From positions 13,270,001 through 13,330,000 of the forward strand of contig OZ249436.1 in the NCBI GenBank assembly GCA_965235115.1: a stretch of DNA of 60,000 bases. The letters are read 5' to 3'. The notes beneath the pieces were generated by a model. The model searched no databases and was not told the DNA's origin. It saw only the letters and a list, made by a program, of their open reading frames with translations. A program made the translations under genes and the position numbers. This stretch comes from Laetmonice hystrix (taxonomy: Eukaryota). Each line of letters opens with the position of its first letter. Position 1 is the stretch's first letter. Positions 1-34,500 of the stretch are shown one piece after another.

Positions 1-305
1 GTATGTAGATGAGATTATTTGAAGTCAGTGATGCATCTTGAACAAGTATAGCGAAGCACTGGTACGATTTGTTCTCTGCAACCATTTAATTATCTCAAGG
101 AAAGCCATTATGTTGCCTAAATTGTGTTGCAAGAATATCATTTATGCTGAGCTTAGGCCTATGGATTATTTTGGGTTTTTTTTGGATGCGCGGGTATGGC
201 CTCCCTGTTGTTACCAATATGATCACCCCCTTGAGAACGGTGGCCATGATGTAAGCATATAACCGATGTCATTGTCTTGTCCTGTACGAAACGTGCTGCC
301 TGCAG

Positions 306-404
306 ACACCGACGAGACGGACAAGGAACCATTCGACGAGCAGAAGTTCCTGCAAGGACAGCTATCACTAGTAGGAGGCGAGCCTAACCCTCTGCCACCA
401 AAGG
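306..404 (+). CDS. Upstream gene exon, motif copy 1 (DTDETDKEPFDEQKFLQGQLSLVGGEPNPLPPK)
   Basis: cctgcag| acceptor, g|gtaacc donor, 99 nt, phase 1-1. Confidence 0.75.
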
Positions 405-3400
405 GTAACCTTTTCCTCCCATCAATGTGTTCAAAGAACTGTTCTTTGTTCTAAATTGTCTACTCACCCTATCTATGTATGTATGTATATGTTTGGACGT
501 TTATAGCTGTACATGTTCGATCACATTTCCATCTGTGCTTGTGGTAAATATACTACAGCTACAACAAAGCACAAATGGAAATGTATTTTGTTGCGTTTAT
601 TATTATTTTTTTAAAATTATTATTATTATTTTTAAACAAGATAGTGCAATGTTCGCCGTTACTGCTGAGGTACCCCTCACTGTGACAAATCACTTGCATG
701 AAATGTGTGGTTACATTATGAGATGATACACAGAGCGTATTAATAAAAGCAACGCTTTCATGTAGAGTATATTTTTTAATTAACCGACTGGCCATGCCAG
801 CATGAAAAAAGGAGCACCAATTAGACCTGCCTACTGTGATGTGTTGGTCACCGCGGAATTCATTCCGCGACCGGACCAAATCTGGTGGGGCACTACTGCG
901 CCACCTATCGGAATGAGATAAAAAGTATATTAATTTTATTGATAGAAATCCTGCGGGGTATAGTTCATAGAAATAGATATAATTAGTTCATAGAAATAGC
1001 TATAATATGTCATATCAATTAAAAGGAATGATCCAGATTCTAGACTAACTGCATCTGATTCAGTGATCTAAAACAAATACAAATGTACTTTCTGAATGCG
1101 AACCGACAGTGTCTGGAGGCTGCCTCTCTCTCCGGTTTGTATTCAGTCTCATGCATCTATCGTTTATCGATGATACAGGTTTCCGCAAAAAATACCAGTT
1201 GATATTGAATTATTTGAACTTTGTTGGAACCTTTGTATTGGAACCTGCAAGACCTACTGATTTCAATTAATTGAACTTGTTCTGTTGTTTTTTAATTAAA
1301 TACCAAAATTGAAAAAGAAAAATATTCTCTACACAGGTATCTTTTTCAGTCAATTCTTTATATTTAAATCATACAAGGTTATATGCATATCTGTAGATGG
1401 ATACTCTATGTATACACTGATGTCATACTATAAACTTGAACACCTACCTTGTGTTAACGTTCGCCTGTCGATTGACTTTGTAGAGTCCTCCGTTCCCAAG
1501 GAGATCCCAGAGTGGGCCAAACGTCGGCAGTCGGTCGGTGAGGTCGACCCTCAGTATTACGACGAGCAACTCTACCTGCATGGCTGTATCCCACTCGTCA
1601 GCGGCGGCACCCCAGATCTCATGCCGGGTAAGTGATCGCCTGCCGACGACAGAGAGAGGAGTACAAACATATGAGCGAACCAAGAGGTCATCAGGTCAAA
1701 TATATTTAGGTCCGCTTTCTTCAAAGCTGACTTCCGGCGGAAGAAGTAGCATCTTTATATCGTATAGCTGGAGGGAGGGGGTGTCTGCCTTCGTTTAATT
1801 AAGGATCCACTTCACCAATTAGCCTTTGTTAGGACAAAGACTGATTGATTCCCCACCCTGCAGGGTCATAGAGCCGCTATATACAAACAAATTGTCTATT
1901 ATACGGCTCACTTCCTAATTTCATTCACAGTTAAGACGCTTCGCAAGAAGCCACCTAAACCAAAGGAAGAGGAGGAGGAGGAAGAGGAGAATGCGCACGC
2001 TTTCGACGAGGATGACTTCCTGGCGGGTCGTATACCCGTTCTGCGTGGGTCCGTCGACCAGGACACCACACCTAGAGGTAGGCCTTAACACACTCGCCCC
2101 CCAATCACGGAAACGTCTAGAGATGACCATGTTCTCAGTCGCGTATAAATAATTAAGAGTGCAGTTACCGGGGCAGAAACAGGACAGAGGTCTTGGGTTG
2201 AGACTCTGGGGGATTCTGCAGAAACAGGACAGAGGTCTTGGCTCGAGATTCTGGGGGATTCTGCAGAAACAGGACAGAGGTCTTGGGTCGAGACTCTGGG
2301 GGATTGTGCAGTAACAGGACAGAGGTCTTGGGTCGAGACTCTGGGATCATGCAGAAACAGGACAGAGGTCTTGGGTTGAGACTCTGGGGGATTGTGCAGT
2401 AACAGGACAGAGGTCTTGGGTCGAGACTCTGGGATCATGCAGAAACAGGACAGAGGTCTTGGGTTGAGACTCTGGGATCATGCAGAAACAGGACAGAGGT
2501 CTTGGGTCGACACTCTGGGGGATTGTGCAGTAACAGGACAGAGGTCTTGGGTCGAGACTCTGGGGGATTGTGCAGAAACAGGACAGAGGTCTTGGGTCGA
2601 CACTCTGGGGGATTGTGCAGTAACAGGACAGAGGTCTTGGGTCGAGACTCTGGGATCATGCAGAAACAGGACAGAGGTCTTGGGTCGAGACTCTGGGGGA
2701 TTGTGCAGAAACAGGACAGAGGTCTTGGGTCGAGACTCTGGGATCATGCAGAAACAGGACAGAGGTCTTAGGTCGAGACTCTGGGGGATTGTGCAGAAAC
2801 AGGACAGAGGTCATGGGTTGAGACTCTGGGGGATTGTGCAGAAACAGGACAGAGGTCTTGGGTCGAGACTCTGGGATCATGCAGAAACAGGACAGAGGTC
2901 TTGGGTCGAGACTCTGGGGGATTGTGCAGTAACAGGACAGAGGTCTTGGGTCGAGACTCTGGGGGATTGTGCAGTAACAGGACAGAGGTCTTGGGTCGAG
3001 ACTCTGGGGGATTGTACAGAAACAGGACAGAGGTCTTGGGTCGAGACTCTGGGGTATTGTGCAGAAACAGGACAGAGGTCTTGGGTCGAGACTCTGGGAT
3101 CATACAGAAACAGGACAGAGGTCTTGGGTCGAGACTCTGGGGGATTCTGCAGAAACAGGACAGAGGTCTTGGGTCGAGACTCTGGGATCATGCAGAAACA
3201 GGACAGAGGTCTTGGGTCGAGACTCTGGGGGATTGTGCAGTAACAGGACAGAGGTCTTGGGTCGAGACTCTGGGGGATTGTGCAGTAACAGGACAGAGGT
3301 CTTGGGTCGAGACTCTTGGGGATTGTGCAGAAACAGGACAGAGGTCTTGGGTCGAGACTCTGGGGGATTGTGCAGAAACAGGACAGAGTCGCGTCATCTC

Positions 3401-6400
3401 CGACCTGTTTTGAGGAGGACTATATCTTCATGCATCCCTATGAAGCTTCCTGTGCTTTCTGTTCTTTGTGTCTGGATTTGTTGAAGTAGATGGCGCCAGG
3501 GTTAAACAGAAACTGCCGCGGGACGTCGGCGCAAATGATGCAGAGGGTGGCGCTGAGAAGAGCATGTGATAGGAGAAGAGATAGATAGGCCTACTCTCGT
3601 TCAACATCTGAATCGCCGATACCTGAACAAAGACAAAGCCATAAAGGGAACCGTACCCCGGTCAAATTAACACGACATGCACCGTTATAATATTAACTCT
3701 CTGCTATTATCGCTGTCCTCCCATATTACGCCGACCCCATTAAAAACGCCCAGTCGCATGCCCGGAAGGGCCAGTCTCGATTGACATATAGTGTTTATAA
3801 ATACACGTATAACAGTCCAGAAGCTGTATCGGCCGGTCGAGATGTCGAGCTCCTGCCCCCTCGACATACGACAACAGTAGCGAAGCGGAAACGGAAGTCG
3901 AGGTGTTCCGAATGTGGCCGCCAGCCAATGTGGCCGCCAGTCATCGCGGCCATGTGGCCCCAGGCCGTCACTATAGTAGGACCACCTTCCGTTACATTGG
4001 TCCATGTCGGGGTGGAGCGTTCAGACCGCTGCCGTTAGGGGACGTTATCATTCCACTGCACAAACTTTTAAAACGGAAAGTCACCACAAGGGAGATATTG
4101 CGACATGTCGCTGCAAACATACGAGAAACGGTTGAAGTCAGCGGCCGTGTATCCGACGACCACCAGCTTTCGTGACATTCACCCGTGTTGGGCTCTGTTC
4201 AAATTCATTCCGGAGACATGGCGCTCGATGTTACTGTTAGACAGACGGTCCGTCCATTACTTGCCAGGTAAGCGCCAGTCATACAGACCTAAAGATACTG
4301 ACAGGTATCATTCCGGAGACATGGCGCTCCATGTTACTGTTAGACAGACGGTCCGTCCATTACTTACCAGGTAAGCACCAGTCATACAGACCTAAAGATA
4401 CTGACAGGTATCATTCCGGAGACATGGCGCTCCATGTTACTGTTAGACAGACGGTCCGTCCATTACTTGCCAGGTAAGCTCCAGTCATACAGACCTAAAG
4501 ATACTGACAGGTATCATTCCGGAGACATGGCGCTCCATATTACTGTTAGACAGACGGTCCGTCCATTACTTGCCAGGTAAGCTCCAGTCATACAGACCTA
4601 AAGATACTGGCAGGTATCATTCCGGAGACATGGCGCTCCATGTTACTGTTAGACAGACGGTCCGTCCATTACTTACCAGGTAAGCGCCAGTCATACAGAC
4701 CTAAAGATACTGACAGGTATCATTCCGGAGACATGGCGCTCCATGTTACTGTTAGACAGACGGCCCGTCCATTACTTACCAGGTAAGCGCCAGTCATACT
4801 GACAGATACTGACAGATACAGATACAGATACTGACAGGTATCATTCCGGAGACATGGCGCTCCATGTTACTGTTAGACAGACGGTCCGTCCATTACTTAC
4901 CAGGTAAGCGCCAGTCATACAGACCTAAAGACACTGGCACATATTATAGTGTATCAAATGTAACAGAAACATTAGCTGACATCACCGAGATAGAATTAAG
5001 ATGTGCTATAAACGGGATGATTTTGGAAGGTGGTCCTCCTCTGATAACTCCGCATTTATAGGTTTGCTCATAATATAGATTATGAGAGGAAAAAAACACT
5101 TGCACATATAGAATTACCCCAGGAGTGTGCACGCAACACAATTCGTTCTGAGAAGAAAGTGCACGCTGATCCTAAAAGCTTGCAAAACGGTCCAAACAAC
5201 CCACTTACATGTTATACCGGCGTACATAATATTTACGACTTGGTGATGACTATACCTGAGTATATATTGTCATGTAGCGAGTTATATTTCCGTGTTTATG
5301 AGACAATGTTAGCACAGGAGCGGGTACTGTATGAACGTATTGTGACCGATACGAGCGCCGTGACCGGTACGTGATGGGGCCCACTTGATTAGGGCTGACC
5401 CATGAAACAGATTTTGTTTTAAAGGTGGCACATAGGCCTAACAATTATTATTACGGTGACATGGTTCATATTACATACAGGCGTACACAAATATTGGCCC
5501 CATATCCACTATAGTTATGTTCTCTGCTTCTCTACAAACTCTGCAGGGAAGGCCCTGTTCCGGCTAGATATGTCTGAACGGCTATTTATGTCCGACAGGA
5601 GATATGTCCGCAAACATGAGCTAGATGTGTCCAGAGAAATTGATATGTCCGCAAATATCAGCTAGATGTAAACTGCCGGTCTCGCACAGCCTTGGCATAT
5701 CCATTTTAATACATCGCTGAAACTAGAAGAAAAAAAAACTGGAACATTTGGAAAGTTAACATCGTTTTGGTGATAGGCCACAATATTTCGGCTCATTCAG
5801 CCCCTCCCTGATCCTGATGAATGGGGGGCGAGAGGCGAGAGCAAATCAGGGATTGGTCTAACTCTTCAGGGTCAAAGTCCTAACGTTCGTATCTGGCGAC
5901 TGGAGACACACGATAGCCTATTGAGAGTCAACTGGTTTGGAACCTTGCCGCAGATTGAGCACACTGACGGGCTGCGCGTTCTATTATAGAAGCCTTTAGA
6001 AGAGTTGTCCACGGATCTTCGAGTTTCACCCTCACCTCTCCCTCATTGACACCAACCGAGCGAACCTCTTCGTACTGTCAGGTTTTCAACAGCGTCTGTT
6101 TCCAGACTACGACCGAACGTTGAGACCCGAGTCTCGCCTTTCCTAGACACTTGTACAGCGTTACTAATTGCTTGAGATACACACCATGTTTGTTGGTCGG
6201 GTACCACAGAACAGGTGTGACAGACACAGCACAGGGTTGATCACGATATTAAACTATATCTCAGCGAAATCACAAACCTTAAGGTAGTGCACGTTGTAGG
6301 TAAACATTTAACCATACTTTTAAAATGAATTTTGTCTTGATTCTTAACATTTGGTTTCGTGAAAATCAAAGAAACTTGTAAACATCCAGGCCACAACGGC

Positions 6401-9400
6401 CCATGGCAACTATAGACGAAGGTGACACCAAGCGTCAAAAAGCCCTATGGTGTCTCCGCTAGGGGGCCAAGCAAGGAACGTGAGCGGACGAGCGTACAAG
6501 CGTCAATAGCCACATTGCAGGCATTGGTGGTATCTGTGATGGATGCTGCCATCTGGTGGTCAGTTTTAAATAGGCGCACTCTAGAGGATAATCCGGATAT
6601 CCACAAATGTCAGCTAAATGTGTCCAGTAATCCGGATATGTCCGCAAATATCGGCTAGTTGTGCCCGCTACCGGACACATCTAGCTGATGTTTGCGGACA
6701 TATCTCCTATCGGACATAACTAGCCGTTCGGACGTATCTATAGCCGGAACAGGCCCTTGAGTCAACATTCCATGTTTCTGTCTTTCTACTTTCCGCCAAA
6801 CTTGAAGAGTTAGGGGTGGCTGTCAATTGACAGTTTATTTTGATATAGTGATTGCCGACCAATATCGGTGTGTGTGTGTGGGGGGGGGGGGGTACGATGT
6901 TTGGTGATATAATGAGTCATTGTTAAACCCCCTTGTTGAGTAGCTGTGTTTATACTATTATATTAATGCACCGTTTGTATATTTGTGTGTCAGAGCCCCG
7001 GATGGAACCAGAGCGCATGCTGGCCCCCTGGGAGAGAGATCCCACCCAGGAGATCTACGCGGAGGAGGAGTTTGATGAGAGTCAGTTCCTCCGTGGACGG
7101 ATTCCGGTAGTACGCCGGTCTGCCGACAGGGAACTGTCAGAGAAAGAAGGTAGGACCCGTCACTGGTATCGTTGTCCTAATTGCAATGTTATAATTATAT
7201 TTTTTTCTAAACTACTTTTCCCCTCTGCTATAGGCCTACTACACCTCCACTGATCGAGTCAGAAGTTATCAAAGTTTGGACGATTTTCGTTATAGGCAAA
7301 AGCGCGACAAGAGGGGACAAGGGTCACATGCCTTCCGATAAATTAAAATGTCATAAATTAGACAGATTTTATCGAAAGACACCCCCCCCCCCCATATCCC
7401 TTGTGGCGCCCGTGGACATGGTCGACATTTAAACTGTCGTAAAACGGTCGCCGTTACAGTCGGTATACACAGTCATGTAGCCAGTAGGCCTACACACGCG
7501 ATAATACAGTTCATCTTTGTAAACCAACAGATTGCCAGCGACATCACCAGGTCGGTCAATTGTCATGTTGTGCTTCTGAAAGACAAAGACGGCAAAAAAA
7601 CGAATATAAGAGATTATCACATGTTGCCATTCATTTTATTTTAACATATCCGGTAATATAGAATGTGACGAGTAAATGACGTCAACTTTAAGATTCTTGT
7701 TGCTACTTGACTGAGACTCAACGAGGGCCAAATCCTGACGTCATAGCCTACTAGTACTATGATCATTGTGAGGGTCTCTACAGAACATTGGGCGATAGTC
7801 TTTTGACGAGGCCCCAATAAACATTTTTAGGCGGCTTTCCCGAGAAGCAAAAGAAAAGCGAGCCGCGAGCCCCATGGGAGCTGTGGAGAGTGGACTCTGA
7901 CGAGGAGGATGGGTTTGACGAACATGACTATCTCCGGGGCCAGACTTCGGTTGTGAAGGGTAGAGATCGTGTGCTGTGTGTACTACTGCTGCGCCCTCTA
8001 CCGTCTTGTCCCTGTACAATCTCGACCTGACCGACCCGATGCGTACCTTTGTCTCTAGCTGATGGTGTACATTGATTTCTACCACTCAGTCCTAGCGTCC
8101 CTCTCCCACAGATGACGTCGAGCCCGCAGTCACGTGACGGTGTCATGTAATCAATTTGCATATGTCCTTGACCTCCATTCCAGGTGACTCTCTTTTTGTG
8201 CTGTCAACTGATCTCTTCCCATGATTCCGTGGATGCTAACTGTTTTAAACTTCTGACGGTGTGGTGTTAGTTATTGAACCAGATAGACTGGTTTGGTGGA
8301 AACCAAGTTGGTGTATTGCCGTGGATGCGTGAGGCGGCCCTGTGATTGCGAATGCTGTGGTTAGGTCGCCCAGGTAGATGCCATACCCGTGCTGTTTCTT
8401 CAATGAGTTAATGAGAAGAGAATCAATCAAATCTGATGGCTGCCAGGTGGTTTTTATCGCATTTTCCACTTATATCTATCCTTGTTTGAAATATCAGTTC
8501 CTTTATATCGCAGTGCGACTTACACGCGAATCTCTTTTTCTTTTTTTTTTTTTTTTTTTTTTGAGGTTGACATCTTAAGTGATAACTCCGTTTTGTATAA
8601 TCATGTACTTGCGGGCATATAAAAACAATTGTCCCGTCTACACGGAGAACGATACACGTTCATGTCGATACTGGTGAAGGCGAACGTGTTTATTGTATAA
8701 GGTGAGGTGATGGAAGGATTCCTGCCTTTACTGGCCATCCTCAGGACGAGAACATAATACAAGAGTTCACCTTACAGTGTGTGTCAACAAAACTGTGGTC
8801 CCCTATATGTTCTATACAAATGTGTTCAGTATGTATATGATGCCCTTCCCTTGTGTCAGTTAATAACATTATCCAGTAAGCTACCTGACCTAAAATCCAC
8901 GTAGTTACGGGTACACCGTAAATATGAAGGGCATGATTGAGGCATCTCCCGACCTGCTGTGATTTGTGTCCGTAAAATGTCCGTATAAAGATTAGATCCA
9001 TATAGATTGATAGCAGATGGTGTGTCCCTTGGATGTACCGTGTGTAATATAGAGTTAGATAATATACTAATCCGTAATAATACAGTGAAGGTGGAGTTAT
9101 AGGTGAGTACCTCCTAGTGTCTGCTAACATTGTGCACTCTGTGTCGTAGCATCCAACCAACGTATCCCGTCTCGTGCCTTCCTCCGTCTCAGCCGTTCTG
9201 TGAGCAGAAACCACGGTCGGCCTCAATCTCCTGCGAGTAACGGTGAGTTCCCAACCTCCCCCACCCACTCAATACTGAGTCATCACAACGACATCGGGCT
9301 CACAAGGCCAAATGCCCGCTTTGTGCGGTAACATATGGAAGTTGTATGTTATGTGTAAATGCGTACTTATTTAAGTTGAATGTGTCCAAAATGAGCTATG

Positions 9401-12400
9401 ACAAACGTTATAGGCTTCACGAGTGTAAGTCATTATAGAGTCCCATTGCCTTTTTCGTGTGTGCATAGAGAGAGAAGTGTACATAACTGCTGCTCGGGGT
9501 ATATAGATGAAAACCTGGCGGTAGGCTGACTTCGCTTCCATGGTAGAATCCAATAGCTGGAATGTCAATGACTCGGAACACTGGTTGTATAGGCCTTCCA
9601 TGCAATACCCACAACATACCAGAATCCGTTCCTGAGGTGGAGAGTGCTCTTTTTTACACAGATTCGGCGCCGTGTGAAACGGACGACACACCAGCCACGC
9701 CACGAAAATCCCGCAGCAGGAAACCTAAATATGGTGATGTGATTGCACAACAAAGCAGATTGGTGCTTTTTGTTGATGTGGCACACCAGTTGAAATTGTC
9801 GGACCAGCACATTAAAAAGAGATCCCTCCCTGCTTAGTAACAGGACCAATGTGTCCTTTAACTCTCCTGTTCACTATAAGAACAAGAAAGGAGCTGAGCA
9901 TGGTAGATACTCGGTATCCCGTAACTTCTGTGGTAATATTGTCTCAGACAATCTTACGCTGCAGTGAAGTCTGATAGATTGATAACCAACATCGTCAGAA
10001 ATAACATGGTTTCTGCAATCTCATCAGTCTAAGAGCGTACCTCATACTATACTGATACTCAGATACCAGCAATCGCCTTCTGACGTATAACAGGTCCTAG
10101 ATAATGCCCTGGCGGTACCCCACTCATCGTTTGCATGATCCCTTCTCTATACCTCTTACTGTTGTCTGAGCTATGTCTGCCGTTTGTGGTTTACGTTACG
10201 TCTGTCACTTCTATGCATACCCTTGTCCATACTCTACTAAATGTAATCTGTCCTGCATGGAAATATCCCCAAACCAAAAAGCCAGTGAAACGCTCTGCTA
10301 ACACTGTTACTCAGTGTGTGTATGCTGTCTCCTATCTATATAAGAATTCGTATTAAAATAATACATCAAGAATGATAATATTTCAGAAACGTCTTCATCT
10401 TGAACCCGTTCTTTCCAATTTATTATATAAACCCGGACTGCCTGTTTCTTTATTGGCAGTTTCAATGTCATTTGTTATAACATTGTCTACAACTATACAT
10501 GATCTTTTATTCTGCCTAGTAACCAGTGGCGGCACTAGAGGGTAAGGGGTAAATTCCCCCTCAAATGTTGTTTACGCCCGTCGTACACCCATTCTATATG
10601 CTCCAAAGTATAGTGCCCATGTCCTTGATTTCCCCCCTGATTTTCTGTTTTGACCCACTTTACCCCAACCCCTGGTTTTTAGTATGGCCCCGCCACTGGC
10701 AGTGATATCTCAAATGTACACTGCATATCTAACTTCAGAGATGGGCCAGACCAGGTCCGTTAATACCTATGTTCTCCCCGCTGAAATCTTGGGGTGGATC
10801 CTATACCAGAAAACAGTGCTATTGCCGCGAACACGCTCAAGCAATGAGTCGTTTGGTTTGGCTTGCAGACCGAAGCCGCAGCTTGAGTCCTGGTTCGGCC
10901 AAACGTCGCCAGAAACAACTTCAGGAAGGAACCAGCAAGGACGTGCCCCTCGATGACCTTACCTACAAGGGCACCAACATCCCGTCCAAGACTTTCCTCA
11001 AGTTGATGAGCCACGTCGACCGCCCAGGGACGGAAGGTGAGAGGGGAACGGACTCAGGCGAAGGTTTAGTCCCAGTCCATCTGAAGGTTTCACGTGTTGA
11101 ACGCGTCAAACTAGTTGCTGATTTTAAATTATTTTACCAGTGAATCATTCTGTCAGTGTTAGTATAGGGCCAAGCGTCTTCCTATAGCGACTACCTGACC
11201 TGTATACGTTTGTCTTCTTGCTTAGACCCGCTCGACCGTCTGCGGGAACACCAGAAGAGCATTGAGTACGATCCGGCCGATGAGGAGGAGGACGAGGAGG
11301 ACGAGGAGATAGATATCCGGGCCCACAGTCCCGAAGCGTACTTTGACGCCCTCCAGCAGCAGACGGCGGGCCCTGGGGCCGACGACAAGGGCAGACAGGT
11401 GAACGGTGAGGTGATGGACAGGTCCAAGGTCGGCCCGCCTGCACCCGCTGCCGGGGGGAGCCCGAGAGACGCGCCCAGGGCCCAGGACCAGGTTCCCATA
11501 ACCCCTACGGAGCCCCCTCGCCAGGTCAAGATTATCTCCAGAGCCAAACCTCAACCTCAGGCTAAACCTCAACCTCAGCCACAGCCACAACTGAAACCAA
11601 GGACTCCACCACAACCTCCTCCCAAACCCGTCACCAAGGTATCTACACATCTTCTTGTCCACTAAGTGATCCACTCTATAATCGAATCTGTAGCAGGACG
11701 CCTACATGTGTATAGTCAGGCCTACATTTGTATAATCGAATCTGTAGCAGTAGGCCTACATGTTGTAAAGTTTAGCCTATAATAGACCAACATCCATTGG
11801 TATTGTTCCCAAACTCAGTACTTTGACCTCTGCCTTACAGTGGATGGAGGACATCATGTAATATTATTCGTCCATGACCATCATTATCGTTATCGTCATT
11901 CTTCGTGATATTGCAATACTAACAATATTACCAAGATTTCTCCTAGTGACCTAATCTTTCCTATTTCATGATTTCTCCTAGTGACCTAATCTTTCCTATT
12001 TCATGATTTCCCCTAGTGACCTAATCTTTCCTATTTCATGATTTCTCCTAGTGACCTAATCTTTCCTATTTCATGATTTCTCCTAGTGACCTAATCTTTC
12101 CTATTTCATGATTTCCCCTAGTGACCTAATCTTTCCTATTTCATGATTTCCCCTAGTGACCTAATCTTTCCTATTTCATGATTTCTCCTAGTGACCTAAT
12201 CTTTCCTATTTCATGATTTCTCCTAATGACCTAATCTTTCCTATTTCATGAATTCCCCTAGTGACCTAATCTTTCCTATTTCATGATTTCTCCTAGTGAC
12301 CTAATCTTTCCTATTTCATGATTTCTCCTAGTGACCTAATCTTTCCTATTTCATGATTTCCCCTAGTGACCTAATCTTTCCTATTTCATGATTTCTCCTA

Positions 12401-12562
12401 GTGACCTAATCTTTCCTATTTCATGATTTCTCCTAGTGACCTAATCTTTCCTATTTCATGATTTCTCCTAGTGACCTAATCTTTCCTATTTCATGATTTC
12501 TCCTAGTGACCTAATCTTTCCTATTTCAGGTGGTTATAGACGACCAGGTGACCGACTTCTAA
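306..12562 (+). CDS. Unrecognised multi-exon gene (5' end probably upstream of the window) encoding an acidic/Pro-rich protein with repeated FDExxFLxG motifs
   Basis: Chain of AG...GT-bounded exons in continuous frame: 306-404, 1484-1627, 1931-2077, 6994-7149, 7831-7959, 9150-9242, 9662-9733, 10869-11036 (all phase 1-1, lengths multiples of 3), 11226-11638 (phase 1-0), then terminal exon 12530-12562 (VVIDDQVTDF*) or 11841-11861 (WMEDIM*). Shared peptide motifs across exons support coding status. Confidence 0.8.
1484..1627 (+). CDS. Upstream gene exon, motif copy 2 (...PEWAKRRQSVGEVDPQYYDEQLYLHGCIPLVSGGTPDLMP)
   Basis: tttgtag| acceptor, g|gtaagt donor, 144 nt, phase 1-1. Confidence 0.8.
1931..2077 (+). 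CDS. Upstream gene exon, motif copy 3 (...KEEEEEEEENAHAFDEDDFLAGRIPVLRGSVDQDTTPR)
   Basis: tcattcacag| acceptor, g|gtaggc donor, 147 nt, phase 1-1; missing from the ORF track because it has no start codon. Confidence 0.8.
2172..3388. repeat. Intronic minisatellite of mixed 45-bp and 43-bp units (about 27 copies)
   Basis: Unit ggacagaggtcttgggtcgagactctgg(gggattg/gatca)tgcag(a/t)aaca repeated head to tail; it generates the many repetitive ORFs in the track. Confidence 0.97.
4105..4267 (+). CDS. Candidate alternative first coding exon of the upstream gene (MSLQTYEKRLK...RSVHYLP)
   Basis: ATG with an in-frame upstream stop at 4069, strong cag|gtaagc donor in phase 1 (compatible with the downstream phase-1 exons), CpG-rich sequence upstream at about 3490-4200. 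Confidence 0.45.
4205..4937. repeat. Tandem repeat, 7 copies of about 103 bp spanning an exon end and 5' splice site
   Basis: Units start at 4205, 4308, 4411, 4514, 4617, 4720, 4841; each contains ccag|gtaag. Confidence 0.95.
5551..6756. mobile_element. Non-autonomous TIR DNA transposon (PIF/Harbinger-like termini)
   Basis: Left ggccctgttccggctagatatgtctgaacggcta...gctagatg is the reverse complement of right ...catctagctgatgtttgcggacatatctcctatcggacataactagccgttcggacgtatctatagccggaacaggccc (imperfect TIR of about 90-120 bp); no transposase ORF; TSD unclear; superfamily is an inference. Confidence 0.7.
6994..7149 (+). CDS. Upstream gene exon, motif copy 4 (...LAPWERDPTQEIYAEEEFDESQFLRGRIPVVRRSADRELSEKE)
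   Basis: gtgtcag| acceptor, g|gtagga donor, 156 nt, phase 1-1. Confidence 0.8.
7831..7959 (+). CDS. Upstream gene exon, motif copy 5 (...RAPWELWRVDSDEEDGFDEHDYLRGQTSVVK)
   Basis: tttttag| acceptor, g|gtagag donor (weaker), 129 nt, phase 1-1. Confidence 0.72.
9150..9242 (+). CDS. Upstream gene exon (ASNQRIPSRAFLRLSRSVSRNHGRPQSPASN)
   Basis: ctaac branch point at about 9124, gtcgtag| acceptor, g|gtgagt donor, 93 nt, phase 1-1; IPSRAFLRL resembles IPSKTFLKL in exon 10869-11036. Confidence 0.65.
9662..9733 (+). CDS. Candidate small exon of the upstream gene (DSAPCETDDTPATPRKSRSRKPKY)
   Basis: ttttttacacag| acceptor, g|gtgatg donor, 72 nt, phase 1-1. Confidence 0.5.
10524..10698. mobile_element. 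Short MITE with hAT-like termini
   Basis: cagtggcgg ... ccgccactg terminal inverted repeats, 175 bp; the putative 8-bp TSD is degenerate (ctagtaac / gcagtgat). Confidence 0.45.
10869..11036 (+). CDS. Upstream gene exon (DRSRSLSPGSAKRRQKQLQ...LTYKGTNIPSKTFLKLMSHVDRPGTE)
   Basis: cttgcag| acceptor, g|gtgaga donor, 168 nt, phase 1-1. Confidence 0.8.
11226..11638 (+). CDS. Upstream gene exon, acidic then Pro/Gln-rich (...KPQPQAKPQPQPQPQLKPRTPPQPPPKPVTK)
   Basis: tgcttag| acceptor, aag|gtatct donor, GC-rich coding-like composition, phase 1-0. Confidence 0.8.
11935..12529. repeat. Tandem repeat, 17 x 35 bp, ending at a 3' splice site
   Basis: Unit gatttc(t/c)cctagtgacctaatctttcctatttcat; the final unit ends ...tttcag and is followed by the terminal exon. 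Confidence 0.97.
12530..12562 (+). CDS. Terminal coding exon of the upstream gene (VVIDDQVTDF*)
   Basis: ctaat branch point, polypyrimidine tract and cag|, phase 0 matching the preceding donor; followed by an AT-rich 3' UTR-like region. Confidence 0.65.
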   Translation: MVIDDQVTDF

Positions 12563-28500: not shown

Positions 28501-31500
28501 GTTCCAGCACAGCGGTGGCGTTCAGTATTGGCGTTTTCTCGCCCACAACCGTACCGGAGGTGCAAACAGTCATATACGTTTACAAGTTTACCGACCAACT
28601 TGTGCCTCCAACCAGTATTTTGTCCCACCAGGTAAGATATTAACTAAGTCTAGAAATACATCTCTGCTTATTGACTCCCACGAGTTAGTTTTCACCTAAG
28701 AGGGCACCGTTGCTCTGTTTCAGGGTGTGCCGAGCTGCCGTCGCCGTTTGCCACTTGTTCTTACACTCCGGTCACCTGCCGGCCACCGCCGGCCACGTGC
28801 TCAACAGGAAACCAGTATTGTCCCCTGGCAGGCAAATGTCAAGTCTTCTCTCAACCTTGTGGTTGTGTAGGTCTGGAGGACGTGTTGGCGATTGGCTGCG
28901 GTCACGGCTCCTTGTCTTCCAATACCACGTCAACCCCTTCCCAGTACCAAACGAGGTTTGGTGGTTCCCTACCTAGCTACAGCCTCGTCGGAGAGACTCC
29001 AATAACTCTGGAGCCAGGTCAGACTGGTCTCTTCATCGCTGATGCTGGTAACATACCGGTCGAACCTAATGACGTCATTGGCGTTCAATTTATAACTGGT
29101 GCGGGCTTCGGGTCTCTCTGTGAACCAGCAGCGGCTGGACAGTCTTCGACAGCTTGGGCTCAGAGTGTCCTGACACGTACTCTGCCATGGGACCACTCGA
29201 GGTTAGACATTAATGTGGACGAGGTCACATGGGTTGATTCATCCGTTTGTCACGTCCAGGCAATGTCTGCAGTAACTGCCACAGTAACACCTCCTGATAA
29301 CGTGGTAGATGGTCGAGCGCACGGGGCAGGTAACTATACGTACAGAGCCGTCCTGCGCAATCCGCTCACTGAGAGCCTCGGAACCACGGAAGCCACAGTG
29401 ACGACGGAAGCCACAGTGACGATGCAGTGGACGATACGGGGATTGCGCGTGGCCAATCCTGAACGGCAGTTGGCGAGATCAAGTCCTGGTTCTGTAGGTA
29501 CGGCGGTCGTTCAAGTGAACACAACACAATATCTCGTTTGGAGAATTTCCCGAGGTTCTGATGTAAGGGCAAACTGGACAATATCAGGCGTCACTCAACA
29601 ATTGACTAAACAGTGTCCCCCGCAGATCATAGATTCAGTGAAAGATTGCAAAAGAAATTTTCAGTTCCTAGTTCATACCATGTCATTTCGCAAAGTCAGC
29701 GAAATATCTACTATTTCCGTGACGCTCTGGAATGAGGTTAGTCAGGAAAAACTAACGGTGGACATACTTGCCCAGCAACTCCTCAATGGTTTTACAGTAG
29801 CCGATGTTCCAAAGAGAGAGTTTATATCGGGCGTAGCTGTTCCATTTTCGACGACCAAGACGGCAGGAAGCGAGGTCTATTATGAATGGACATTTGGAGA
29901 CGGGAAAACGAAAGTCGTGAGCACTGCCAACTATTCCCACGTTTATCTGAATCCAGGAATCTACAACGTGGCAGTCGTCGCGAAAAACACGCTCAGCTCA
30001 CAGACTGATACGCTTCAAGTGAGACTTTTAAGGAAGGCAAATGTACAGAACCTTCAAATTCAAGCAAGCACAGAAGTGGATATGACGATGAAGTTTGCAG
30101 TCGCGGTTAAAATGGACTTTCAGTCTCACTCGTCCATCACAGTGTTAATCGACTATGGCGATGGTGGAGAGAGTTGGATCACAAAACCCGAATTGACGAC
30201 CTCATCGTCTGTAACCATTCAACAACAGCACACGTATAGCGTCGGTAACTTTTACACAATCACGGTGTACGTCATTGATAACCTGTTCTGGGATGGCCAA
30301 ACAAACATCAGAAGTATGGCCGGAAATCCCGGAGTGTACGTAGACAGTCATCATATTCAGGCCTGGACCGTCCTATCCGGGTTGGTCATTTCCTCGAGTC
30401 CAGAATGCAGTGCTGTAAGTACACCTGCAAACTTCAGTGTCGCTTTTCCTAAAGGATATACTAAGACTGGATTTCAGTTTAACTGGGACTTCGGAGATGG
30501 AACACGCTTAAGTGGTTTGGAACAAGATATGCCAATACACGTCTATTACAGTGCTCCTAAAACAACGCACACGGTGACGGTTAGCGTCAAGGATGGTACA
30601 ACTAAAGGTTCTTCGAGCTACACAAAATGTGTTCAGGAAAGCATCACGAATGTTAATCTGGCATTGCAATCTGGGCAGTCATTTCTGGCGTTCACAGCAG
30701 GATCGTCTGTCACAGCTAGATTCAAAGTGAACACAACTGGCTCGCACTTACAATATCACTGGATCTATGGGTTGGAAACCTCAGAGTTAGCCCCTTCATC
30801 GTTTAACATCAGGTACACCTCTGAAGGTACACGTACAGTCAGTCTTCAAGTTTCAAACGACGTCAGTTCCAAAAATCAATCCACCACCTTCGACGTCGTA
30901 GAAAGGATTGCAGGGCTGCGACTTATCCACGACGGGGACACTGGGGACGTTCTGGCGACGGAGAAAAACTATACATTAACCGTCAGCATTACAGCTGGGA
31001 GTGGTGTGGTGTTTTCATGGGACTTCCCTCCATCAGCACAGGTCAGTGTCGCCACGAATACGACCAGGACTCTCCTGTGGACGAATCCTGGCACAGAGAC
31101 AGTGAAGGTACATGCCAGTAACCAAGCGGGTTCACATCAGCAATCTATCGTTGTGACATTACAAAACCAGATAAGTGATCTAAAGGTTACTGCTCGGGGC
31201 ACGGATGTAACTGTAGGTGGCGGTATCAAAGTCCGGGCTGTGGCTGTCGGAGGAACAAGTGTTCAATACTCGGCAGTCATCGAGAATCCACGTGGGGATC
31301 GCTCTGTCAATGATAACCTCTTCAATGGAATCCTGACAGCGAATCTCACCACACCAGGACGACACGTCGTCTATATGACGGCGTCAAACAGGGTTAGTTC
31401 TGTGACGAAAAGTGTTGTGATCCACGCATGGGAACTCCTAACAAATCCGTTCATCCAGTCAGCTTCTATCAGAAACTCAAACTGGTTACCGAAAGGAACC

Positions 31501-34500
31501 CCGATTATATTCGAAGTTCAGTTTAGAAGCGGTAAGGCCAGTGATTTCCAATGGAGGATAACGAAGAACAATGCGGACATTTCGTGTGAACCCATGATAA
31601 ACACGGATCAGTGTACTGGAAACAACAAAACGATGCCAGTCGAGTTCCCGTCGGAGGGACGTTACGCTGTGCGTGTGGTTGCAAGAAATCCTGTTTCCAG
31701 GGTCACAGTGAGTGCAGAGTTTGAGATACAAGAACCTATCCGGGACCTTATTATCCAGGATCTACAAGGTGATATTGCATACTTAAATGAAACGCTCAGC
31801 TTTACGTCACATTTGTCTTTTGGCACAGGAGTATCATACCACTGGCAAATGTTACTGCCCACGGGGTCAAGTACTCCAGTACTTACCAATCCAGAGACAT
31901 TCACACATCAATTCGATATGGATGGAAATTACAGCCTCAGTCTAACAGCGATTAATAATGTCACAGTGGTAACTAAGGTCTTAAACATTGATATAAGAAC
32001 CCCGCCAGACAACGTTCTTATTGCAATCCACTACCCAAATGATACAGACGACGAATACATTTGCCGACCTTCTTTTGGGTGTTACATTCACGAGAACAGA
32101 ATTGTCGAAGCTTTTGTAGAAGGCCTATCTGAAAAAGACCTTCCTCACACTTGGCGATTTTTTGGCACCTATCCCGCAGCCATTGTGCAAGGTACAAAGG
32201 CACAACACAACTTTACCGTAAAAGGCCCCTTAGTTTTTGAAGTTAGAATACAGCAACCTGACTACCTTCTCACCATACGGAAATTCATCCACGTTCAAGG
32301 TCGACTCCCACCCTTTGCCCTCGCACAGTCCAAGAACGTGACCTCTACGGGAAGTTCTGTTTCATTTACGCCTTCAATTGAAGAGTTTGACAAACTGGAG
32401 TGTATCTGGATAATATATGAGGAACAACTTCCACCTAAAACATGTGGAACGCTGCAATACGTTTTCCGTTATGTTGGCGTCATTCCGGTCTACGTCACTG
32501 CCAAAAATAAAGTCAGTTTCTCTAGTAGCTACGTCAGTGTGCGTGTACAGGAAGAGATAGCTGGACTGGATCTGGTGGAATCATTCTATCCTGTCGGCAG
32601 ATTGATCGAAATGTTTGCAAATGTTTCTGCCGGAACGAATGTAAGCTACGAGTGGGAGATACAAACAGGTTCTGCCACGTTCTCTGTCAACAATCGGAGT
32701 CTAGCGGTTGCTAGATTTCCGGCACTGGGACATTATACCATACGGATAACAGCAAAAAACGATGTAAGTAGGAAGACCATTGAAAAAGAAGTCTATGCGC
32801 AGGAAGAAGTGACTGGTCTGGAGTTGGTAAAGGCACTTCGCCAGGTTTATGTCGGACAGACAGTGTGCTTTACCGCCTCAGTAAAAACAGGAACGGACGT
32901 CACATTTGAATGGAAGATCGACCTAAGGATTCAACAAGATGGCCCGAACGCTACCTTCAGCTATACATTCAAGAGATCCGGCACAGTGTTTTTGAGTGTG
33001 AAGGCGTACAATAACGTTTCAAGTAAGTGGATGCTATTACTGATATCTTCGTATACGATTCGCTGTGATCCGATGGAACTACTCGTGACCGGAGGCAATG
33101 TGAGAAAAGAATGGATGTCAAAAACAATAAATGTTGAGGCGTCAGTCAGTCTCAATTGTACCCGCTACCCTGTCCTCTATAAGTGGACAGTGTACACGGA
33201 CGAGACATGCCAAAACGAGTCCACGGCGGTGAGTCTACCAAAGAGTGTCCCTGTGACGACGCCTTTCCTCATCCTACCCCCAAGAACGCTCCATCATGGC
33301 ATTTACTGTGCTCGCTTCTCTGCGTCATATGAACGCACACCTGTTCTGACTGAAGTTCAGCTTCGTTTGGAGGTACTTCGCTCACCACTGAGGGCACTCA
33401 TTGCTGGCGGATCTGAGCGTACGGTTTCAGCCAAAGATAAAGTACAACTCGATGGTTCGCGATCATACGACCCTGACCGGCTGGACGGAAACCCTCTTGA
33501 CTTCAGCTACACCTGGACGTGCAAACCACAGGTAAGAATATGGCGTGTCTTATTTTTTTTAAATTGTGTATATATTTCAATGCATAAAATCTTCTTGTGA
33601 ATAAGGCAAACAAATAAAGCCTCTCTTTTGGCTTGGCAGTGGAGGAAAGAGATATCTGCGGGGAAGTCGGAATGTTTCGAACCACAGAACACCAGCAGGG
33701 TCACCATTGACAAGGGAATGCTGAAGTCTAATCGGAACTACACTGTCACTCTCACCATCAGTGTCTCCGATCGTCCTGGCACGACCATCACGCAGACGGT
33801 AGGCACCATTACCGTCCCTCTGGATCGGTACAGACAAATAAATCAACCCTTTGATCACTTCTCTCAGATTACGATATTTTTTAGTTTTATCTGGCTAATC
33901 CGATGTTCCTTGTTTACACAGGTTGTAGTCACTAAAGAGATTGTGCCGCTTGTTGGGATTGAGTGCGATTCTTGCCGTGAATCTAACCAATACATCATCA
34001 GCACTGGGTGTGCTGTCAAACTGATCGGTAACTGTGCCAACTGCGGCATCTTCTGGAAGAACGACTACAAGTGGAGAGTTGTACGCGACGACAAACAGGA
34101 GATTACCCTCGACTACAACACAACGACAACAGGGGTGAATAATCGCAACCTAGTCATCAATAAAGGCGTTCTCAGCATCGACCACAGCTATGACTTCTAT
34201 CTGGAGGTGTATTCCCATAAACTAGAGCAGAAAGGGTTCGCTATGCTGAAGATGCCACACAACCACCCGCCGTCTGGAGGTCGGTGCAGGATACTCAATG
34301 AAGGAGATGTCGTGGCCGCCTTGACAGAGACACTCTGCGTGATTTGTGAAGATTGGGTCGACCCAGATGATGCCACCAATTCACCCCTTACATATGAAGT
34401 AAGTATATTATTGTATAATGGTAGTATGAATATTCTAGTTCTGTGCAGTCATGCCATTTTGTTTTGCTGTTCAAATGATCTGTGAAAAAACGTAATTCAT

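Follow-up and report, generated by a model that had tools for sequence, protein, structure and literature searches.

In a 60,000-nucleotide window of the 627-Mb Laetmonice hystrix genome (contig OZ249436.1, hereafter C1, positions 13270001-13330000, window base 1 being G000:C1:13270001), five exons each encode one copy of a short [FY]DExx[FY]LxG motif, and four further copies lie upstream in the same orientation. [quoted passage not shown] Judging from splice signals and homologues, the PDZ-encoding side and the repeat block are very probably one gene. The gene family is already known and the repeated motif is uncatalogued.

The five peptides quoted by the first-pass annotation are all present on the forward strand, one motif to an exon. 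Each exon is of phase 1/1, is flanked by an AG acceptor and a GT donor, has a length divisible by three and an open frame, and in three of them a Pro-Trp patch (PEW once, PWE twice) precedes the motif. The strict motif pattern had five matches in the window and none in any of 60 block shuffles, a comparison that is post hoc, the pattern having been derived from the same five matches. The better test is a profile of the five motifs, which detected four more copies upstream (E 4e-6 to 2e-3), making nine in total. A repeat profile run over the window, the 100 kb upstream and the 80-kb paralogue cluster detected no others. The original set of five was real but incomplete, as there are nine motif exons and the gene extends to both sides of them. 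Genome-wide, a DNA pattern returned five matches (four in the locus and one in a 46-residue frame devoid of context) compared with four for a control pattern.

The nucleotide sequences have diverged while the peptide is kept, as had been claimed. In 504 codon pairs from the nine cores of 14 codons each, identity at codon positions 1, 2 and 3 is 0.62, 0.70 and 0.36, and different codons stand behind 126 of 241 identical residues; third positions are far more diverged than first and second ones, as constraint acting on the peptide would produce. The consensus of 46 distinct homologue motifs is [FY]-D-E-x-A-[FY]-L-x-G-[RK]-[ILV]-[PSN]-[ILV]-[LV], and in this set, which was chosen for a Gly at +8 and excludes proteins P0016 and P0024, the Glu (46/46), the Leu (45/46) and the Phe/Tyr (46/46) are invariant or nearly so. 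Conservation is strongest in the DExx[FY]L helix. AlphaFold2 modelling with a 10-sequence alignment produced a disordered chain (pTM 0.18) with a five-residue helix of locally higher confidence in five of six motif units, and a single repeat modelled alone formed one helix, the same as in the longer chain. These models agree with the earlier proposal of a multivalent modular chain, with the motifs sitting in a disordered multivalent tail, and the repeat is probably a binding motif.

The first-pass annotation did not recognise the motif from any named family, and searches of family and structure databases agree, with no Pfam, NCBIfam or PDB match. Pfam returned no family on eight of the exons and a match in one of 26 profile members, at E 0.14; the best NCBIfam hit to the repeat had E 0.18 and the best PDB hit E 0.86, and repeat and IPS (see below) profiles gave only E >0.2 against PDB. 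The ESM Atlas contained no usable match for homologue P0002 and one weak feature match for P0031 (0.77, TM <=0.26), which is no proof of novelty. No description of the repeat tail, of CAPTEDRAFT_224947 or of the motif strings (one irrelevant match apart) was found in the literature, where searches on Zasp, annelids and ZM covered titles and the starts of abstracts. Among known short motifs, LIR, LFa of FAM21, TMBS1 of tropomodulin, the Y-acidic motif of kinesin and the LxVP motif of calcineurin were rejected as candidates because they do not fit.

The first-pass annotation had recommended reading upstream for more copies and an N-terminal domain, and this revealed both the four motif exons and a PDZ domain in a gene that starts ~34.8 kb before the window and ends at window position 12562 (Table 1). 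The 13 best PDB matches of the first PDZ exon (PWGFRL) are all ZASP, Cypher or PDLIM PDZ domains; the second PDZ exon scores 34.7 bits against Pfam PDZ, above the cut-off, and taken alone is less specific. A ZM exon matches PF15936 (31.9 bits versus a cut-off of 28.7) and the exon following it weakly matches positions 51-71 of the same family (E 0.1). PDZ and ZM lie upstream of the repeats on the same strand and in compatible frames. None of the 54 LIM matches in the genome falls inside the locus, a result that rules out the Alp, Enigma and Tungus subtypes and no others. The protein had been called unrecognised, which stands for its repeat but not for the protein, which is recognisable by the ZASP/PDLIM-type PDZ and ZM upstream and by one homologue chain that combines PDZ and repeats.

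Exon junctions in Laetmonice hystrix rest on splice signals and homologues. The short transcript would consist of PDZ, Pro-rich, (ZM) and IPS parts and stop at the exon ending in ATDF, in a model of 892 residues. In the alternative transcript, this exon would be bypassed and the repeat block read to the VTDF end, yielding up to 1624 residues; the corresponding model has 25 exons and no internal stop. Three sequencing runs covered the introns and had no exon-end joints among those listed, as DNA would, and are uninformative on expression and skipping.

The profile of five motifs retrieved 26 proteins at E <= 0.001 among 1.84 billion representatives, of which P0016 and P0024 looked like unrelated repeats and were set aside. 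The 733-residue P0029, from a 2423-nt contig, follows the genomic exon order: a PDZ match (E 0.003, below the cut-off), a KPWAY block (53% identical over 40 residues), one IPS motif, six repeats, two IPS motifs and an EVTDF end. L020, the only confirmed one of 112 pattern matches in a metagenome scan, is a single 633-residue open frame leading from a KPWAY-like block through five repeats to STDF. We infer that it is a cDNA, because the matching exons are more than 11 kb apart in Laetmonice hystrix. P0002 begins within an IPS-like stretch ahead of its first repeat, and in P0031, a gene model from Capitella, an IPS motif precedes ten units. All five complete homologues and one partial homologue end in TDF. 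An S/T-x-hydrophobic end is of the class I PDZ-binding type (PMC10754285), which the VTDF end fits. Ends of the form [ST]-D-[FL] recur in LIM-less forms and in alpha-actinin (ESDL).

Complete homologues carry 5, 6, 6, 8 and 10 repeats compared with nine in Laetmonice hystrix, and positional orthology is clear mainly for repeat exon R8, whose best match is the next-to-last unit in most of them. Seventeen short matches contain exactly one motif each, and 15 of these, by eye, leave the conserved part through a pair beginning with G, R or S (GK, GR, RK), as would result from a gene caller continuing past a phase-1 donor; the arrangement of a single motif in each phase-1 exon thus seems to be conserved between species. 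Paralvinella and Ridgeia (two of 20 matches looked up) and Capitella account for the organism-labelled matches, and these three annelids suggest an annelid-centred repeat. Among 7999 candidates for longer proteins with the repeat (1361-3885 residues) there were none, which is weak evidence.

Several observations weigh against assigning the repeats to a Zasp-like protein. Between the ATDF exon and R1 there is a possible ATG exon followed by a GT donor, and the block could be transcribed alone. P0029 and L020/P0030 have no ZM region (no PF15936 match in P0029 and P0030), and the form with repeats may have the PDZ alone. Homologues without introns are from other species, P0029 being known from its protein sequence. 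Apart from the Pro-Trp pair in some copies, the repeat does not detectably resemble FATZ LM1/LM2 or any solved alpha-actinin ligand, and the FATZ motifs are described as basic and facing an acidic rod in the available text of PMC8163081, whereas the repeat core here is acidic. Muscle expression of the paralogue is borrowed from the family, and the gene in Platynereis could be the paralogue that has LIM.

The first of these observations opens the way to an alternative in which the repeat block would be a separate PDZ-less gene, or mainly the product of an internal promoter, descended from the duplicated 3' half of a Zasp-like gene and acting as a PDZ ligand through VTDF. The possible ATG exon is followed by a second exon with an in-frame ATG ahead of R1, a stop exon of its own closes the upstream unit, IPS motifs and a TDF end occur in both halves, and LIM-less ZM paralogues are clustered in this genome. 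However, upstream-type sequence is joined to the first repeat in P0029, L020/P0030, P0002 and P0031, and the IPS exons have phase-1 donors, compatible with the phase-1 acceptors in the repeat block. We consider a separate gene improbable.

As a LIM-less Zasp-like protein, the product can be compared with Drosophila Zasp66 and Zasp67, described in the available text of PMC9751615, which likewise have a ZASP-type PDZ at the N-terminus, a ZM and no LIM; the same source accepts LIM-less members in the Alp/Enigma family. The Laetmonice hystrix gene differs by its long tail of nine exon-borne repeats and its alternative 3' end, and the likeness is one of architecture. Mytilus PDCP-1 and molluscan PDZ/ZM proteins (PMC7573561) are lophotrochozoan proteins with PDZ and ZM and no LIM described, with highest expression in muscle and actin binding; the available text of that paper mentions no such repeat, and no mollusc is among the organism-labelled profile matches. 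Zasp52 exon 15e likewise gives a Zasp gene a large disordered block that is optional, although, in what is accessible of PMC13521563, it is one exon between LIM domains, unlike the array seen here, which is terminal and made of small duplicated exons that share a fixed motif. FATZ/myozenin is also a disordered scaffold of the Z-disc, with short motifs that become folded when bound (LM1-LM2, LM1 containing Pro-Trp) and a ZASP-binding C-terminal end, as reported in the part of PMC8163081 available; its motifs are not tandem and do not match the repeat in sequence.

The five IPS.F..L (IPS) motifs of the gene resemble QS[RG]TF..L motifs near the LIM-bearing paralogue, and may be ALP motifs (AM). 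The AM papers PMC1781342 and PMC3305314, in their available parts, treat a motif different from the repeat.

By analogy with the family, a role in the muscle Z-body appears reasonably likely. The PDZ domain would anchor the protein on the C-terminus of alpha-actinin, which in Laetmonice hystrix ends in ESDL (its domains are split across exons), and the repeats would provide avidity. Each repeat may fold upon binding as a short helix closed by the Gly and a hydrophobic tail, so that a chain would offer 5-10 weak sites for one Z-line partner, with an avidity that would keep the scaffold in place, and the VTDF end may itself bind Zasp-type PDZ domains. The repeat block probably grew through tandem duplication of a phase-1/1 exon. 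As a guess, alpha-actinin ranks first as a possible partner of the repeats, with some protein not listed here about equally possible, actin or the thin filament being unlikely and a small heat-shock protein (HSP) quite improbable.

Docking of small HSPs would give the motif tail a different meaning, G-x-[IV]-P-[IVL] acting as an IxI/V element for the beta4/beta8 groove and the long isoform as a multivalent anchor for chaperones at the Z-line, in the manner of BAG3. The 46 motifs with Gly at +8 include 38 with [IVL]x[IVL], 20 with strict [IV]x[IV] and 21 with [IV]P[IVL], the genome has 21 HSP20 matches, and small-HSP grooves are bound, also multi-dentately, by the IxI/V motifs found in BAG3 and elsewhere, according to the accessible text of PMC8047445 and PMC9237749. 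This explanation nonetheless has little probability, as strict [IV]x[IV] occurs in four of the nine copies here, [VI]x[VI] is frequent, accounting for 1.1% of tripeptides in human proteins (available part of PMC8047445), and it is the DExx[FY]L helix that is best conserved and is kept where the tail is lost, in four middle units of P0031 and three units of P0001. The small-HSP genes of this genome (L021-L027) include several with long open frames, and several have two alpha-crystallin domains per frame.

Disorder of the whole tail in the AlphaFold2 models would also suit an elastic or spacer element, and the condensates formed by FATZ-1 with alpha-actinin (PMC8163081, available text) would suit a self-association motif for condensates, in either case lacking a specific partner. 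Position-specific conservation, measured in motifs picked by pattern, is tighter than a spacer requires, and we regard such a role as highly improbable.

All 17 exons from the first to the fifth IPS exon are of phase 1/1, including eight that are motif-free. The first-pass annotation was correct about the symmetry of the motif exons, but this symmetry does not establish the tuning of motif number by exon skipping that it proposed as possible. Disordered genes are often built of tandemly duplicated symmetric exons (PMC3632108, in its available part); given that motif-free exons share the symmetry and that tandem duplication predicts it, symmetry reports origin and merely permits skipping. Tuning of valency in vivo by skipping of single repeat exons is accordingly rather unlikely in our estimate, even though each exon is skippable in frame, Zasp genes are heavily spliced (22 isoforms for Zasp52 in the accessible text of PMC13521563) and unit counts vary among homologues (5, 6, 6 and 8). 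Those counts belong to different sequences (31-59% identity) and are explained by gain or loss through duplication in lineages, and R2 and R3 have weaker yet canonical splice signals. A clearer candidate for a splice switch is whether a transcript stops at the ATDF exon or continues into the repeat tail.

At its boldest, the LIM-less Zasp-like reading would make the repeat a new annelid-specific sarcomeric motif whose array replaces LIM domains in one Zasp paralogue, the ATDF/long-tail choice and exon skipping together setting valency and Z-body build across obliquely striated fibre types, which we regard as doubtful. This would be an independent analogue of the splicing of titin Z-repeats, alpha-actinin-binding repeats of ~45 residues that are encoded one per exon and spliced to different copy numbers. 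Their sequence differs from that of the repeat, and they serve as a working analogy only.

Very little has been described of the sequences of annelid muscle scaffolds, and the public annelid entries that we found are 'hypothetical' fragments without PDZ, which the present gene models correct. If our reading is true, an uncatalogued short motif is conserved across Capitella, Paralvinella, Ridgeia and Laetmonice hystrix, and the gene would provide a test case for a LIM-less Zasp gaining multivalency and a candidate splice switch for obliquely striated fibre types. No new class of system is opened.

Table 1. Exons and adjoining intron of the repeat gene, in contig (C1) or window coordinates
Feature	Position	Strand	Remarks
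PDZ exons	C1 13235239-13235343, 13245448-13245596	+	
Pro-rich exon	C1 13252523-13253597	+	
KPWAY exon	C1 13254334-13254725	+	
ZM exons	C1 13256042-13256293, 13258234-13258331	+	
Three upstream IPS exons	C1 13259521-13259691, 13260820-13260939, 13261313-13261492	+	
Alternative last exon	C1 13262567-13262703	+	ends ATDF-stop
Possible ATG exon	C1 13264160-13264232	+	GT donor
Exon after possible ATG exon	C1 13264334-13264414	+	
Repeat exons R1, R2	C1 13265864-13266055, 13266829-13266987	+	
Repeat exons R3, R4	C1 13268114-13268260, 13268704-13268844	+	
Motif-free linker exons	C1 13268472-13268579, 13269818-13269940	+	
Intron, 3' part	window 1..305	+	
Repeat exon R5, phase 1/1	window 306..404	+	core FDEQKFLQGQLSLV
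Repeat exon R6, phase 1/1	window 1484..1627	+	PEW patch, core YDEQLYLHGCIPLV
Repeat exon R7, phase 1/1	window 1931..2077	+	acidic run, core FDEDDFLAGRIPVL
Repeat exon R8, phase 1/1	window 6994..7149	+	PWE patch, core FDESQFLRGRIPVV
Repeat exon R9, phase 1/1	window 7831..7959	+	PWE patch, core FDEHDYLRGQTSVV
IPS exon, phase 1/1	window 9150..9242	+	IPSRAFLRL, then RS.S stretch; counterpart in complete homologues
IPS exon, phase 1/1	window 10869..11036	+	Y.G..IPSKTFLKL, motif type of the three upstream IPS exons
Exon, phase 1/0	window 11226..11638	+	helical PLDRL..H.PE.Y module, then Pro/Gln-rich stretch
Last coding exon	window 12530..12562	+	VTDF-stop

The PLDRL..H.PE.Y module of the phase-1/0 exon is weakly shared with homologues. 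Two related clusters lie elsewhere on C1, both on the reverse strand. A LIM-less PDZ-ZM paralogue is arranged head-to-head with the repeat gene (L008-L010, C1 ~13207400-13226100) and has a KPWE motif and an apparent GTSDF-stop end. The second cluster, 3.6 Mb away (L032-L036, C1 ~9620400-9652800), comprises a PDZ-ZM-LIM gene as well as ZM exons with QS[RG]TF..L motifs and an ATSDL-stop end. The repeat profile matched neither the head-to-head PDZ-ZM gene nor the PDZ-ZM-LIM gene.

The intron between R7 and R8 contains a high-copy element with terminal inverted repeats (window 5549-6758, depth ~50,000 versus ~50 in its flanks), which looks like a non-autonomous DNA transposon. Intronic tandem repeats occupy window positions 2173-3388 (45-nt unit), 4205-4939 (103 nt) and 11935-12528 (35 nt), and every copy of the 103-nt unit includes a donor-like GGTAAG word. 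Further downstream, at window ~15450-50700 on the forward strand, translations read by eye resemble a polycystin-1 (PKD1)-like gene, with a 1641-codon frame at 28675-33597, that is unrelated to the repeat gene.

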